The position numbers and the translations under genes were made by a program. Below the pieces are notes generated by a model. That model did no database searches. It saw only the letters and a program-made list of their open reading frames with translations, and was not told where the DNA came from. Shown here one piece after another: positions 2,029 to 40,900 of a DNA stretch of 64,000 bases; the stretch's first letter is position 1, and each line of letters opens with the position of its first letter. This DNA is from Escherichia coli (GTDB lineage Bacteria; Pseudomonadota; Gammaproteobacteria; Enterobacterales; Enterobacteriaceae), in assembly GCF_003334355.1 (NCBI RefSeq), contig NZ_QOWP01000003.1; one strand, 5' to 3'.

Positions 2029-3868
2029 CTTTCAGGGCTTTTATCGCCGGATGTAAATCAACAGATTGTAACAGACCACCCGGCGGCGTTTTCACAAGTT
2101 GCGGACATAACCGTTCCACGTCCGCCAGCAGGGTTATGGCCTGTGCCATTGACCACTGCGCATGTTCGCTCATCAGATTTCGTGCAATCCACTGCGCAAT
2201 ATTGCCAGGTTCGAATACGGACTGCTTCGCCAGGTAGCCTATCAGTTCAGGAATCAAGATTTGTAAATTTTGTTGGCGTAAGGGTAAAGGCACGGCCCTG
2301 ATGGTCACATGCTGTGCATCTGACTGGAAATCAATACCCAATTCCGCCAGGGCAGACTGCGCTTTTTCTAATGCCGATTTTTCTTCGCCAGAAACTTTTA
2401 GCCGCAACGGAATAAGCAGCGGCTGAGCGCAAACTGGCGCTTCACCCGGCGTCAGTTGTACCTGACGCAGCCAACGTTCTGCCACTGGCAAGGCTAAAAG
2501 TGAAATGTTGCCGTCGCGCTCCAGCAACGCACAGTCGGAATGGACGATAGTCAGTACCCGACCAAAACTCTGACTGTTCGCCGCAAGTGCAGGTTCCTGC
2601 GGTTCCGGCGCTTTTAATTTTTGCATCGGCGCGGGCGTTTGCAAAAGCTGGCGATACACTTCACCTTGCTGTTTCTGGTAGCCTGGCTGCGCATTCGGCC
2701 AGGGGGCAGCCGGACGACTGCCTGATGCTGGCGCAGGAGTGTAGCGCGGAGCTACCGGCTCACGAGCTGCCGGTTCTGCAAAGTGATTGCGCCCCGCCGC
2801 CACGCGGTTTTCCGGAATGGAACGCGGTGCAGGTTGGGGTTCATCGTCCAGCGGTAGCGGCGTTTCCAGTTGCTGTTGTAGCACGCTCAGCACGCCCTGA
2901 TAGATAAAATCATGCACCAGACGCGACTGATGGAAACGCACTTCGTGTTTGGCGGGGTGCACGTTGACGTCCACCTGATGCGGATCGATCTCCAGATACA
3001 GCACAAATGCCGGTTGCTGATCGGCCCCCAGTTTGTCTTCGCAGGCCTGGCGGATCGCGTGATTGATCAGGCGATCGCGCATCATGCGACCGTTCACGTA
3101 GCAATACTGAATTTCTGCCAGTGCAGGCGTGGTGTGATTTGGATCGGCCACCCAGCCGCGTAGCGTGAGATCGCCGTGTTGCCATTCAATCGCCAGCGCT
3201 TGTTCAAGAAAAGCGGTGCCGCAAATCGCGCCTAAGCGCCGTTCTTTTTGCCCGCCTTCCGGCACTGCGCGGTACTGACGCACAATTTTACCGTTATGCG
3301 ACAGGTTGATCGTGACGTCGAAACGCGCCAGCGCAATGCGGCGGATGATCTCATCAATGTGGTTAAATTCGGTTTTCTCGGTGCGCAGGAATTTGCGCCG
3401 CGCCGGGGTGTTGTAGAACAGATCCAGCACCTCCAGCGTCGTCCCCACAGGATGCGCCGCCGGTTTTACCGTCACGTTCATATCGCGCCCTTCGGCATAG
3501 GCCTGCCAGGCTTCCTGCTGTTCTGCGGTGCGTGAAGTGAGCATCAGGCGGGAAACCGAACTGATACTCGCCAGCGCCTCACCGCGAAAGCCCAGGCTGA
3601 TAATGGCTTCGAGATCGTCCAGAGAGGCGATTTTACTGGTGGCATGACGAGCCAGCGCCAGCGCCAGCTCATCTTTTTTGATACCGCAGCCGTTATCACG
3701 AATGCGGATAAGTTTCGCCCCACCGCGTTCGATATCAATATCGATACGCGTCGCACCTGCATCGAGGCTGTTTTCCACTAGTTCTTTGACTACCGACGCA
3801 GGTCGCTCGACCACCTCACCTGCGGCAATCTGGTTCGCCAGTTGTGGCGGTAAGACCTGAATTGGCAT
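2021..3868 (-). CDS. mutL: DNA mismatch repair protein MutL
   Basis: ORF track 616 aa [39 protein letters not shown]...; start trimmed to second Met to give 615 aa; overlaps miaA by 8 nt. Confidence 0.95.
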
Positions 3869-3877
3869 CAATCGTCC

Positions 3878-5215
3878 TTAGTTTGGCAGCGTGCGATCTG
3901 GCGTCGTCACCGTACTGGCAGTTTGTGCCGTTGCACCCTGCGGCGCAGATTGCATCGGATGCGCAAGGAAGTAATTGCGCAGGCCTTTGTAAATGGCTTC
4001 TGCCAGCTGTTGTTGGTAATCGTCGCTCGCCAGCAAACGTTCTTCGCTGTTGTTGCTGATAAAACCGGTTTCGACCAGTACTGATGGGATATCCGGCGAG
4101 CGCAGAACGCCAAGGCTGGCGTGTTCTGGTCGACGTTTATGTATTTCGCCAATGCGTTGCAACTGACTGATCATACTGGTCGCTACATCATACCCTACCC
4201 GCTGGGAATGACCGAACTGTAAATCCAGCACCGCCTGGCTTAAATAGGGGTCAGACTGACTGTTCGCCAGCACATCACCCGCCCCACCCAGCAGCTCCGA
4301 CTGTTTCTCGTGCTGCTCCAGCCAGTTGGCCATTTCACTGTTGACGCGACGGTTAGAGAGCACCCATACGGAAGCGCCAGTCGCACTGCGGTTCGGTGCG
4401 GCATCAGCGTGAATCGACACGAGGAAATTGGCGTTTTGCTTACGTGCCACATCACTGCGCCCCATCACCGAGATAAAGTAATCCCCGTCACGGGTTAAAA
4501 CGCCTTTAAACATCGGATCGTCATTGAGCAAAGTACGCAATTTACGCGCGATGGCGATGGTGACATTTTTCTCCCGCGTACCACCGGGGCCGATAGCGCC
4601 AGGGTCCTGACCGCCGTGTCCGGCATCAATAGCGATGATAATTTTATCGCCAGTGTTAGCCGTCGCGCGCGCTGCCGGACGCGTTACCGTATTACTGCTG
4701 ATAACACCCGTAGTGCGGTTACTTTCCGTTTTAAACGGATTGCGCGCCGGTTCGCTGACGCGCGGTGCGACAACCGCAGGCGTTTCAACGCGTTTCGCAA
4801 CCACGGGCGGCGGAGGAGGCGGTGGCGGCACATCGGCGTTAATCGTAAAGACGACAGTGTAATTGCTGCCATTCTGCCGCTTCACCGCTTCGGTTTTACC
4901 GTTTTCGGTAAGATCGACCACCAGCCGTAGCGTTTGTGCATCTTTAGGCGTTCCAGAGCGAATCGCCTTCACCAGATTATTGCCGCTGAACAACAACGGC
5001 AGTCCCTGAATCACGCCCGTTTGTTTGATATCGAGCGCCACGGTGCGTTTGCTTTGATGGCTAAACGCATAATCAGGATCGCCAATAAAACTCAACGTTA
5101 TCCGCGCCTGTTGATTACCGTTAGAAACCTGAATATCAGAGAGCGTCGCGGCACCCACCGGCGTGCACAGCAGCAGCAGCGTCGCTACCAACCAATTTCT
5201 GATGCGATACATCAT
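3878..5215 (-). CDS. amiB: N-acetylmuramoyl-L-alanine amidase AmiB
   Basis: ORF track 450 aa; trimmed to [22 protein letters not shown] (signal peptide) for 445 aa; contains the octaproline tract and amidase_3 region. Confidence 0.93.
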
Positions 5216-5233
5216 CCCGCCACCTTTCAAAGG

Positions 5234-7212
<1,979 letters not shown>

Positions 7213-17669: not shown

Positions 17670-18647
17670 TTATGCCCGGTCAACGCTAAAGGCGATGACT
17701 TCAGCCAGTGTCTCCGCGCCCAGCGCCAACATCACCAGACGATCAACACCTAATGCCACGCCGGAACAGTCAGGCATACCGACTTTCAAGGCTTCAATCA
17801 GATTCTGGTCAATGGGGTGCTGCGGCAAACCGCGCGCCGCGCGCTTACGGTTATCTTGTTCAAAGCGTTGTTGCTGCTCACGGGCATCCGTCAATTCATG
17901 GAAACCATTCGCCAGCTCAATACCTTTATAATAAACCTCAAAGCGTTCAGCGACCCGATGATCTTCGGTACTGATTTGCGCCAGTGATGCCTGGCTGGCT
18001 GGAAAGTGGTACACAAAGGTCGGTTTTTCTTTGCCAATATTTGGCTCTACGCCAAAGGTAAACAGCAATTGTAGCAGCGTGTCGCGGTCTTCTTCGGTAT
18101 CAGCAACATTGCTCAAATCCAGTTTCGCTGCGACTTCCCGCAGTTGCGTTTTGTCGGCAGAGAGCGGGTCAATTTCCAGATAACGCAAGAAAGCTTGTTG
18201 ATAAGAAAGGCTTTCTGCTGCCGGGCAGTCCAGCACCTGTTGTAAGAGATCGTCCACCTCGTTCATCAACCGGTACATATCATAGTGCGGTCGATACCAC
18301 TCCAGCATAGTGAACTCAGGGTTGTGATAACGCCCCATCTCTTCATTACGGAAGCTGCGGCACAGCTGGAATACCGGCCCACAACCGGCAACCAGCAGGC
18401 GTTTCATATGGTATTCCGGGCTGGTCATTAACCAGAGATTCATCCCCTGCGAATGCCCGGGGCCAACGAAACGTGTCTCAAACGGGACCAAATGAATATC
18501 GGTTACCGTCGCCTGGCTCATACAAGGCGTCTCCACCTCCAGCACTCCACGATCGGCAAAGAAACGACGGATCTCCGCCATAATCGCCGCGCGTTTTAAT
18601 AAGTTAGGAATGGATGCGCTCGGCTGCCAGGATGCCGTTTCGCTCAT
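17670..18647 (-). CDS. epmA: EF-P lysine34 beta-lysyl ligase EpmA (PoxA/GenX), 325 aa
   Basis: ORF track 340 aa; start trimmed to [30 protein letters not shown]; class II aaRS catalytic core motifs. Confidence 0.92.
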
Positions 18648-18819
18648 AGTTAAATCTCCAGTTTTTGACAAGGGCACGAAGTCTACTCGCAACGCGACGG
18701 CGAGACAAATTTTACGCAGGAATCAAACAGCGGTGGGCAGTGACTAAAAAAAGCACGATCTGATGGTTTAGTAATTAAATTAATCATCTTCAGTGATAAT
18801 TTAGCCCTCTTGCGCACTA

Positions 18820-25030: not shown

Positions 25031-25597
25031 TTACTTCACGCGAGAGACGTATTCACCAGAGCGGGTATCCACTTTGATGACTTCGCCGATTTGTACGAAC
25101 AGCGGAACCTTAACCACAGCGCCAGTAGACAGGGTAGCCGGTTTGCCGCCAGTACCTGCGGTATCACCTTTCAGGCCCGGATCGGTATCAACGATTTCCA
25201 GTTCAACGAAGTTCGGCGGAGTAACGGAGATCGGCTGACCATTCCACAGAGTTACGATACACTCTGCCTGATCCAGCAGCCATTTAGCGTTATCGCCAAT
25301 TGCTTTTGCATCAGCAGACAGCTGCTCGAAAGTTTCGTTGTTCATGAAGTGCCAGAACTCACCGTCGTTGTACAGGTAAGTCAGGTTCATATCGACAACA
25401 TCAGCGCCTTCAGCGGAATCAGTAGATTTGAAGGTTTTTTCTACGCGAGTACCGGTCAGCAGACGACGCAGTTTAACGCGAGCAAATGCCTGGCCTTTAC
25501 CCGGTTTTACGAATTCACTCGCTTCAACCGCGTAAGGTTCGCCGTCTAACATGATTTTAAGACCAGCACGAAAATCGTTGCTATAGTACGTTGCCAT
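25031..25597 (-). CDS. efp: Translation elongation factor P
   Basis: ORF track 188 aa [46 protein letters not shown] (Lys34 in KPGKG loop). Confidence 0.97.
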
Positions 25598-25638: not shown

Positions 25639-26667
25639 ATGGCGCATATTGTAACCCTAAATACCCCATCCAGAGAAGATTGGTTAACGCAACTTGCCGA
25701 TGTTGTGACCGATCCTGATGAACTTCTGCGTCTTTTGAATATAGACGCGGACGAAAAACTGTTGGCCGGACGCAGCGCCAAAAAGCTGTTTGCCCTGCGT
25801 GTGCCCCGCTCATTTATCGATCGCATGGAGAAAGGCAATCCGGACGATCCTCTTTTGCGTCAGGTACTTACCTCGCAAGATGAGTTTGTCGTCGCGTCCG
25901 GATTCTCCACCGACCCACTGGAAGAACAGCACAGCGTAGTGCCTGGTTTGTTGCATAAATACCACAACCGGGCGCTTTTGCTGGTCAAAGGCGGCTGCGC
26001 GGTAAATTGCCGCTATTGCTTCCGTCGCCACTTCCCCTATGCCGAAAATCAGGGCAACAAGCGTAACTGGCAGACTGCACTTGAGTATGTTGCTGCGCAT
26101 CCGGAACTGGACGAGATGATTTTCTCTGGCGGCGATCCGCTGATGGCGAAAGATCACGAGCTGGACTGGTTGCTCACACAACTGGAAGCCATCCCGCATA
26201 TCAAACGTCTGCGGATTCACAGCCGTCTGCCGATTGTGATCCCGGCACGCATCACAGATGCGCTGGTTGAACGCTTTTCACATTCTACGCTGCAAATCTT
26301 GCTGGTGAATCACATCAACCATGCCAATGAGATAGATGAAACATTCCGTCAGGCGATGGCTAAGTTGCGCCGGGTAGGCGTTACTTTGCTGAACCAGAGC
26401 GTTCTGTTACGTGATGTGAACGATAACGCACAAACGCTGGCAAACCTGAGTAATGCGTTGTTCGATGCCGGCGTGATGCCGTATTACCTGCATGTGCTCG
26501 ATAAAGTACAGGGCGCGGCGCATTTTATGGTGAGTGATGACGAAGCACGGCAGATTATGCGTGAGTTGCTGACATTGGTGTCGGGATATCTGGTGCCGAA
26601 ACTGGCGCGAGAAATTGGCGGCGAACCCAGCAAAACGCCGCTGGATCTCCAGCTACGCCAGCAGTAA
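25639..26667 (+). CDS. epmB: EF-P lysine 2,3-aminomutase EpmB (YjeK)
   Basis: ORF track 342 aa; radical-SAM CxxxCxxC motif (CAVNCRYCFRRH); divergent from efp with only 41 bp between them. Confidence 0.95.
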   Translation: MAHIVTLNTPSREDWLTQLADVVTDPDELLRLLNIDADEKLLAGRSAKKLFALRVPRSFIDRMEKGNPDDPLLRQVLTSQDEFVVASGFSTDPLEEQHSVVPGLLHKYHNRALLLVKGGCAVNCRYCFRRHFPYAENQGNKRNWQTALEYVAAHPELDEMIFSGGDPLMAKDHELDWLLTQLEAIPHIKRLRIHSRLPIVIPARITDALVERFSHSTLQILLVNHINHANEIDETFRQAMAKLRRVGVTLLNQSVLLRDVNDNAQTLANLSNALFDAGVMPYYLHVLDKVQGAAHFMVSDDEARQIMRELLTLVSGYLVPKLAREIGGEPSKTPLDLQLRQQ

Positions 26668-39361: not shown

Positions 39362-40900
39362 ATGCAACAACCTGTAGTTCGCGTTGGCGAATGGCTTGTT
39401 ACTCCGTCCATAAACCAAATTAGCCGCAATGGGCGTCAACTTACCCTTGAGCCGAGATTAATCGATCTTCTGGTTTTCTTTGCTCAACACAGTGGCGAAG
39501 TACTTAGCAGGGATGAACTTATCGATAATGTCTGGAAGAGAAGTATTGTCACCAATCACGTTGTGACGCAGAGTATCTCAGAACTACGTAAGTCATTAAA
39601 AGATAATGATGAAGATAGTCCTGTCTATATCGCTACTGTACCAAAGCGCGGCTATAAATTAATGGTGCCGGTTATCTGGTACAGCGAAGAAGAGGGAGAG
39701 AAAATAATGCTATCTTCGCCTCCCCCTATACCAGAGGCGGTTCCTGCCACAGATTCTCCCTCCCACAGTCTTAACATTCAAAACACCGCAACGCCACCTG
39801 AACAATCCCCAGTTAAAAGCAAACGATTCACTACCTTTTGGGTATGGTTTTTTTTCCTGTTGTCGTTAGGTATCTGTGTAGCACTGGTAGCGTTTTCAAG
39901 TCTTGATACACGTCTTCCTATGAGCAAATCGCGTATTTTGCTCAATCCACGCGATATTGACATTAATATGGTAAATAAAAGTTGTAACAGCTGGAGTTCC
40001 CCGTATCAGCTCTCTTACGCGATAGGCGTGGGTGATTTGGTGGCGACATCACTTAACACCTTCTCCACCTTTATGGTGCATGACAAAATCAACTACAACA
40101 TTGATGAACCGAGCAGTTCCGGTAAAACATTATCTATTGCGTTTGTTAATCAGCGCCAATACCGTGCTCAACAATGCTTTATGTCGATAAAATTGGTAGA
40201 CAATGCAGATGGTTCAACCATGCTGGATAAACGTTATGTCATCACTAACGGTAATCAGCTGGCGATTCAAAATGATTTACTGGAGAGTTTATCAAAAGCG
40301 TTAAACCAACCGTGGCCACAACGAATGCAGGAGACGCTCCAGAAAATTTTGCCGCATCGTGGTGCGTTATTAACTAATTTTTATCAGGCACATGATTATT
40401 TACTGCATGGCGATGATAAATCATTGAACCGTGCCAGTGAATTATTAGGTGAGATTGTTCAATCATCCCCAGAATTTACCTACGCGAGAGCAGAAAAAGC
40501 ATTAGTTGATATCGTGCGCCATTCTCAACATCCTTTAGATGAAAAACAATTAGCAGCACTGAACACAGAAATAGATAACATTGTTACACTGCCGGAATTG
40601 AACAACCTGTCCATTATATATCAAATAAAAGCGGTCAGTGCTCTGGTAAAAGGTAAAACAGATGAGTCTTACCAGGCGATAAATACTGGCATTGATCTTG
40701 AAATGTCCTGGCTAAATTATGTGTTGCTTGGCAAGGTTTATGAAATGAAGGGGATGAACCGGGAAGCAGCTGATGCATATCTCACCGCCTTTAATTTACG
40801 CCCAGGGGCAAACACCCTTTACTGGATTGAAAATGGTATATTCCAGACTTCTGTTCCTTATGTTGTACCTTATCTCGACAAATTTCTTGCTTCAGAATAA
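39362..40900 (+). CDS. cadC: Membrane-integrated pH/lysine-responsive transcriptional activator CadC
   Basis: ORF track 512 aa MQQPVVRVGEWLVTPSINQISRNGRQLTLEPRLIDLLVFF (winged-helix), single TM, PPPIP motif at codons 120-124. Confidence 0.95.
   Translation: MQQPVVRVGEWLVTPSINQISRNGRQLTLEPRLIDLLVFFAQHSGEVLSRDELIDNVWKRSIVTNHVVTQSISELRKSLKDNDEDSPVYIATVPKRGYKLMVPVIWYSEEEGEKIMLSSPPPIPEAVPATDSPSHSLNIQNTATPPEQSPVKSKRFTTFWVWFFFLLSLGICVALVAFSSLDTRLPMSKSRILLNPRDIDINMVNKSCNSWSSPYQLSYAIGVGDLVATSLNTFSTFMVHDKINYNIDEPSSSGKTLSIAFVNQRQYRAQQCFMSIKLVDNADGSTMLDKRYVITNGNQLAIQNDLLESLSKALNQPWPQRMQETLQKILPHRGALLTNFYQAHDYLLHGDDKSLNRASELLGEIVQSSPEFTYARAEKALVDIVRHSQHPLDEKQLAALNTEIDNIVTLPELNNLSIIYQIKAVSALVKGKTDESYQAINTGIDLEMSWLNYVLLGKVYEMKGMNREAADAYLTAFNLRPGANTLYWIENGIFQTSVPYVVPYLDKFLASE

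Follow-up and report, generated by a model that had tools for sequence, protein, structure and literature searches.

The stretch of DNA analysed here, called the window below, comprises 64,000 nucleotides from Escherichia coli. It carries amiB on the minus strand, in the context tsaE-amiB-mutL. The neighbouring open reading frames are mutL, a tsaE of 153 amino acids, an nnr of 522 amino acids and queG; mutL was named from its translation, and tsaE, nnr and queG from the RefSeq annotation of the strain D3 locus. The amiB product matches the NCBIfam equivalog NF007751 over positions 1-445 of 445 with 975 bits, the cut-off being 532, and the matching stretch is labelled amiB by RefSeq in 5,426 of 5,426 complete E. 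coli genomes. Pfam recognises both domains expected of an AmiB, AMIN and Amidase_3. The main features are the following.

3878..5215, minus strand: amiB coding sequence, 445 amino acids plus stop, N-acetylmuramoyl-L-alanine amidase AmiB (NF007751, 975 bits; RefSeq annotation)
4835..5146, minus strand: AMIN domain, residues ~24-127 (PF11741 at residues 27-112; AlphaFold2 strands 24-127 with pLDDT ~80-90)
4805..4828, minus strand: octaproline tract, residues 130-137 (sequence reading and published EF-P-dependent pause)
4643..4834, minus strand: predicted inter-domain linker, residues 128-191 (pLDDT <50 at 131-189; composition)
3962..4642, minus strand: Amidase_3 catalytic domain, residues ~192-418 (PF01520 at residues 194-413, E 4e-48; PDB 8C0J)

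An AlphaFold2 model of AmiB was built from 31 orthologues, with poor overall quality (mean pLDDT 59) but clear domain boundaries. Confidence is high over the AMIN strands and drops over residues 131-189; the catalytic domain starts at ~192. The last AMIN beta-strand is formed by residues 118-127 (YTVVFTINA) and the tract begins two residues later. The linker has ~60 residues, of which 16% are proline, and is predicted to be non-globular; the tract is its first element and is followed by a conserved VVAKRVE. In the model the tract therefore occupies the place of a spacer, in a non-globular segment between two folded domains. Residues 3-16 are modelled as an N-terminal helix resembling a signal peptide, and AmiB is a periplasmic protein. 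The only solved structure of E. coli AmiB (8C0J) covers residues 190-422, and the tract has therefore never been experimentally visible. The equivalent linker was not buildable in the published model of the Pseudomonas AmiB-EnvC-FtsEX supercomplex.

At the other end of the gene, the amiB stop codon TAA (3880-3878, minus strand) is followed 9 nt further on by the ATG of mutL (3868). A Shine-Dalgarno-like AAGGA overlaps this stop codon (window 3866-3880, minus strand), and translational coupling between amiB and mutL appears possible from this arrangement. A search of 3500-5600 against Rfam gave two sub-threshold chance matches only, and the scan for promoters and terminators returned nothing above shuffle expectation. 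An open reading frame of 104 amino acids on the plus strand (4616-4930) was discarded, being merely an Arg/Gly-rich antisense reading of the tract.

Re-reading of the window confirmed the octaproline reported by the sequence-only reading, with coordinates, plus-strand string and peptide all exact. The minus strand from 4828 to 4805 reads CCG CCA CCG CCT CCT CCG CCG CCC, eight proline codons in the amiB frame, and the plus strand at 4805-4828 reads GGGCGGCGGAGGAGGCGGTGGCGG. A run of this length is far beyond chance. It occurred in 0 of 200,000 shuffles of AmiB, and at a frequency of 1e-5 when the proline-rich linker alone was shuffled; for an E. coli-sized proteome of 1.35 million residues with 4.4% proline, about 2e-5 runs of eight are expected. 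An EF-P stalling site is expected to have three or more consecutive proline codons in a translated reading frame, and amiB has eight. The long open reading frames of the window contain one other run of at least three prolines, in the SPPPIPE of cadC, which agrees with the earlier description of amiB as the second EF-P client in the window.

The genes for EF-P itself and for its beta-lysylation, efp, epmB and epmA, are found in the same 64-kb window. EF-P, its modifiers and the clients cadC and amiB thus lie within ~36 kb of one another, a proximity that is probably coincidental.

25031-25597 (minus strand), 25639-26667 (plus strand), 17670-18692 (minus strand), 39362-40900 (plus strand): efp, epmB, epmA and cadC loci, listed jointly

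The tract, the ribosome pause and its EF-P dependence are already in the literature, and the dependence of the pause on EF-P was judged here from published profiling data. A paper from 2015 reported that no other E. coli gene has as long a run of proline codons as amiB, and showed a sharp footprint peak and a pile-up of ribosomes at that place (PMC4402525). In a study from 2024, asymmetry scores of the Woolstenhulme type are tabulated for amiB, covering its six PPP windows and its PPV window (PMC11611912, Supplementary Data 3B). The scores are 1.0-1.24 in the wild type versus 6.7 climbing to 10.5 along the tract in delta-efp; in delta-efpL they are 1.0-2.9, and in delta-efp with plasmid-borne EfpL 3.8-6.7. 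Together with the footprint peak, these values bear out the claim that the AmiB tract needs EF-P. The further claim, that the run belongs to the strongest stalling motifs, holds only in part: amiB is a clear EF-P client with a score of ~10, but lies well below other genes in the delta-efp column of the same table (cpxA ~39, bcsB ~32, atpD ~19), cadC having ~11. A search of the literature found no value for the AmiB protein level in delta-efp, nor any data on how AmiB or MutL is expressed in this mutant. In the available portions of the text and supplements of Elgamal 2014 and Elgamal 2016, amiB is not mentioned.

What is new here is the variation of the tract, which ranges from 5 to 8 codons among strains as stable, lineage-specific alleles. 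A 241-nt query around the tract found a match in each of the 5,426 complete E. coli genomes, and the spans among the matches listed were 241, 238, 235 or 232 nt only. The alleles were read codon by codon in sixteen fetched representative loci. The numbers of genomes given below are approximate, as they derive from allele-specific queries and identity bands, with ~45 short-tract genomes assigned to no allele.

P8: CCG CCA CCG CCT CCT CCG CCG CC(C/T); window sequence, O55:H7; ~4,530-4,543 genomes, ~83%
P7: first CCG lost; O145 (O145:H28); 30 genomes
P6: CCG CCA CCG CCT CCG CCA; UPEC-455U, 8178, DETEC-P881
P6, divergent strain: CCG CCA CCG CCG CCG CCA; SCPM-O-B-9504
PPSPPP: P6 allele with CCG -> TCG; ST131, A26
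P5: CCA CCG CCG CCG CCC; E2348/69, O99:H6 CU42ET-1, TR01, 14EC033 and others; 19 genomes

The allele of the window is 100% identical to that of K-12 strains over the 241-nt query. The 30 genomes with P7, most of them named O145, share 100% identity over 238 nt. For P6, at least 87 genomes fall within 99% of the allele. Some 714 genomes (~13%) lie within 99% of the ST131 allele and are counted as PPSPPP; Nissle 1917 is 99.6% identical to this allele. The suggestion that the proline count could vary between strains has thus proved correct. No allele of nine or more codons was found at or above 97.6% identity, a synthetic P10 query matching ordinary P8 genomes best, although a P9 in a strongly divergent flank background could hide below the bulk of the P8 matches. 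At the short end, a synthetic P3 query gave nothing shorter than P5 in the 5,426 genomes, and alleles of four or fewer codons were thus not seen among them.

Two further loci carry the interrupted allele in unexpected surroundings. The Nissle-labelled E. coli EcN_Sk (L014, NZ_CP172017.1) has a PPSPPP-M tract as in ST131 and A26, and its 212 nt upstream of the tract are identical to the window allele, while ST131 differs at 11 sites there. This pattern implies either a recombination breakpoint at or beside the tract or else an assembly that is engineered or chimeric. A contig of 1,060 nt labelled MAG: Collinsella sp., Actinobacteria (L063) encodes an AmiB fragment that is 97% identical to the window protein and has the PPSPPP allele as in ST131; it is almost certainly a binning contaminant.

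Such length alleles might be taken for the trace of a contingency locus, a phase-variable simple sequence in which frequent slippage switches or tunes amiB. That length alleles exist, and that all indels of the 241-nt region map to the tract in the sequences examined, is what such a locus would show. The indels sit at two-copy codon repeats (GCCGCC, CCTCCT, CCGCCG), a placement that would fit occasional replication slippage. However, Tandem Repeats Finder called no repeat in the DNA of the tract at a score of 30 or above, because the codons are mixed, with four different proline codons in use, and a microsatellite was on these grounds rejected. Every length difference among the matches listed is a multiple of three and keeps the frame. 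The alleles checked are fixed in lineages, as seen from the 30 identical P7 genomes, mostly O145, and the 714 within 99% of the allele of ST131; the full-length 241-nt span is retained throughout dozens of K-12 laboratory and evolved lines. Frequent or out-of-frame changes of length within lineages were not seen. We therefore regard phase variation as effectively refuted and hardly credible as an explanation of the tract. Of the proposal that the repeat is a slippage site, the in-frame indels at short codon repeats survive; a true microsatellite does not, and the indels are rare and lineage-fixed. The variation amounts to ordinary indel polymorphism, in frame, within a low-complexity linker.

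The remainder of the linker behaves differently from the tract. Variants of AmiB with 414 and 420 amino acids occur in E. coli and Shigella (proteins P0006, P0007, P0009-P0012, P0014, P0016 and P0017), in which 31 or 25 linker residues are missing and P8 is intact. The affected segment is as follows.

~4664-4759, minus strand: linker segment lost in variants, AmiB residues 153-183 (...TRPAAR)

The loss sits between GCA(C/G)CGCGCG direct repeats. The short-linker variants differ in the flanks of the tract, with DV or DA before it and VVAK or VVVK after it, which suggests that the deletions may have been recurrent. A junction query for the 31-residue deletion, which joins the flanking pieces at one place, gave no count in the complete genomes. 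To judge from these natural variants, the rest of the linker is dispensable in nature.

A disrupted copy of the gene was met in E. coli strain D3, a dog isolate (L009, NZ_CP010140.1, 2226-3469). Here an IS1 truncates amiB shortly after the tract region and the truncated gene is joined to a partial cpdB, a structure that indicates a probable IS1-mediated rearrangement inactivating amiB.

Conservation beyond E. coli was followed in a scan with one genome per species, of which the 80 best loci were retained. These 80 species span Escherichia, Citrobacter, Salmonella, Enterobacter, Kluyvera, Buttiauxella, Cedecea, Atlantibacter and others. Five or more consecutive prolines at the AMIN-linker junction were found in 74 of the 80 enterobacterial species, with a range of 5-10 and a mode of 8 (nine species with a longest run of 5, 14 with 6, 12 with 7, 34 with 8, four with 9 and one with 10). 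The run is below five in the other 6 of 80, mostly because one Ser, Ala or Arg interrupts it, and in Pantoea the species scan found the tract wholly absent. The surrounding motif is conserved as FTINAD[AV]-Pn-VVAKRVE. The 74 tracts that reach five prolines or more are encoded in 71 distinct codon arrangements. Proline has thus been kept while synonymous sites turned over, which argues for selection on the protein and against a recently expanded DNA repeat. The comparison shows that selection in Enterobacteriaceae maintains 5-10 prolines in a row at the AMIN-linker junction.

In Escherichia whittamii (L021) a tandem duplication of 10 residues directly follows the tract, and AmiB has 455 amino acids.

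The tract is specific to Enterobacteriaceae. Among 150 diverse AMIN/amidase representatives, clustered at 50% identity, 118 have no proline run longer than two, and polyproline was on this account rejected as a general feature of AMIN amidases. A run of at least four is present in 7 of the 150: five of these have the enterobacterial FTI[ND]AD flank, and two are unrelated proteins, with P6 and P4. Since the tract is missing from Pantoea and from the 118 representatives, AmiB-type amidases do not need it in general. It is an innovation of Enterobacteriaceae and not a requirement of the enzyme family.

We consider it probable that the tract is maintained as a spacer at the level of the protein, with an EF-P-relieved pause as a side-effect and with occasional in-frame indels that become fixed in lineages. 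The tract would act as a short, stiff, polyproline-II-like element that keeps the linker at a distance from the AMIN domain, which targets septal peptidoglycan. This role is suggested by the position and the conservation of the run, and the polyproline-II conformation is putative. It agrees with the 414- and 420-residue variants, in which linker residues outside the tract are gone and P8 stays. During translation, slow Pro-Pro bond formation causes ribosomes to pile up unless EF-P, beta-lysylated via EpmA and EpmB, accelerates it, as the published profiling shows. The two-copy repeats CCTCCT, CCGCCG and GCCGCC now and then gain or lose whole codons, presumably by slippage, and the resulting in-frame alleles, P5-P8 and PPSPPP, are tolerated and have become fixed in lineages. 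EF-P dependence would then be a cost of the tract rather than its purpose.

Selection for the pause itself would account just as well for the conservation of so costly a motif. The tract might be kept as an EF-P-gated throttle, like the PPPIP of CadC, that sets the copy number of AmiB; ribosome-RNA polymerase uncoupling might in addition set expression of the downstream mutL-miaA-hfq. Such a role would explain why the run is conserved despite its translation cost, and the amiB asymmetry of ~10 in delta-efp matches that of cadC in the same data set (PMC11611912). In favour of an effect on downstream genes, only 9 nt separate the amiB stop from the mutL ATG. A general mechanism connecting EF-P, Rho and transcription-translation coupling has moreover been described, in which Rho-dependent termination can set in beyond polyproline codons when EF-P is lost (PMC5021804). 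However, the asymmetry in the wild type is ~1, so there is no throttling with EF-P present (PMC11611912). A length that drifts from 5 to 10, with 13% of E. coli interrupted by serine, is odd for a tuned regulator, and amiB does not appear in the main text, candidate Table 1 or supplements of PMC5021804, as far as these are available. On balance we regard the throttle as rather unlikely. That its strength differs between the natural alleles (P8, P7, P6, P5 and the PPSPPP of ST131 and Nissle-type strains) and reaches mutL-miaA-hfq may be entertained as a long shot. Were it true, stalling under limiting EF-P would lower AmiB, and uncoupling 1 kb upstream of the mutL start would lower the mutL-miaA-hfq superoperon; translation capacity would then be linked to cell separation, to mismatch repair and to the level of Hfq, differently in different lineages.

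The pause could also buy time for a co-translational event at the domain boundary, such as folding of AMIN or targeting for export. A function of this sort has been proposed in general for polyproline motifs close to the ends of domains. In E. coli such motifs are over-represented between positions -2 and +9 counted from a domain end, and the AmiB tract, at about +2 from the end of AMIN, falls inside this range; the published enrichment is weak, 1.2-fold (PMC5811046). Against such a role, the signal-peptide-like helix and the periplasmic location of AmiB imply that the domains fold after export and not at the ribosome. There is likewise no asymmetry with EF-P present (PMC11611912), and we hold a function of this kind to be improbable.

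Little of the underlying biology is new, as the tract and its EF-P-dependent pause were published previously. The present analysis adds that the run in amiB, the longest polyproline of E. coli, differs between strains, with 5-8 codons and ~13% Ser-interrupted, and is stable within lineages; that 5-10 prolines are retained at the domain boundary in Enterobacteriaceae amid synonymous turnover; and that deletion of the remainder of the linker can leave the run in place. Together these three additions speak for selection of the run at the protein level and against a leftover of DNA slippage. They also make amiB a convenient natural allelic series for relating polyproline length to EF-P dependence in vivo.

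In CadC the motif adjusts how many copies of a regulator are made, and we know of no such regulatory role for AmiB. In other respects the two proteins are alike: the PPPIP of CadC (39719-39727, same window) is the classic EF-P stalling site, and in both proteins the consecutive prolines lie in an inter-domain linker. Their asymmetry in delta-efp versus wild type is comparable, with ~11 versus ~2.6 for cadC and ~10 versus ~1 for amiB (PMC11611912). The run of AmiB is longer than that of CadC (8 versus 3) and variable in length.

The proline-rich region of TonB is of the rigid spacer type found in periplasmic and envelope proteins, and AmiB resembles it. Like the TonB-type spacers, the AmiB segment is rich in proline, non-globular, placed between domains of an envelope protein and predicted to be disordered or extended. 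Unlike them, it is a pure homopolymer of eight residues that opens a linker of ~60 residues.

Among the closest relatives, amiC of E. coli has only a PPA motif, on which delta-efp has no effect (PMC11611912). E. coli AmiC (PDB 4BIN) and Pseudomonas AmiB have the same order of AMIN, flexible linker and Amidase_3 as E. coli AmiB, but unlike it they carry no polyproline run.
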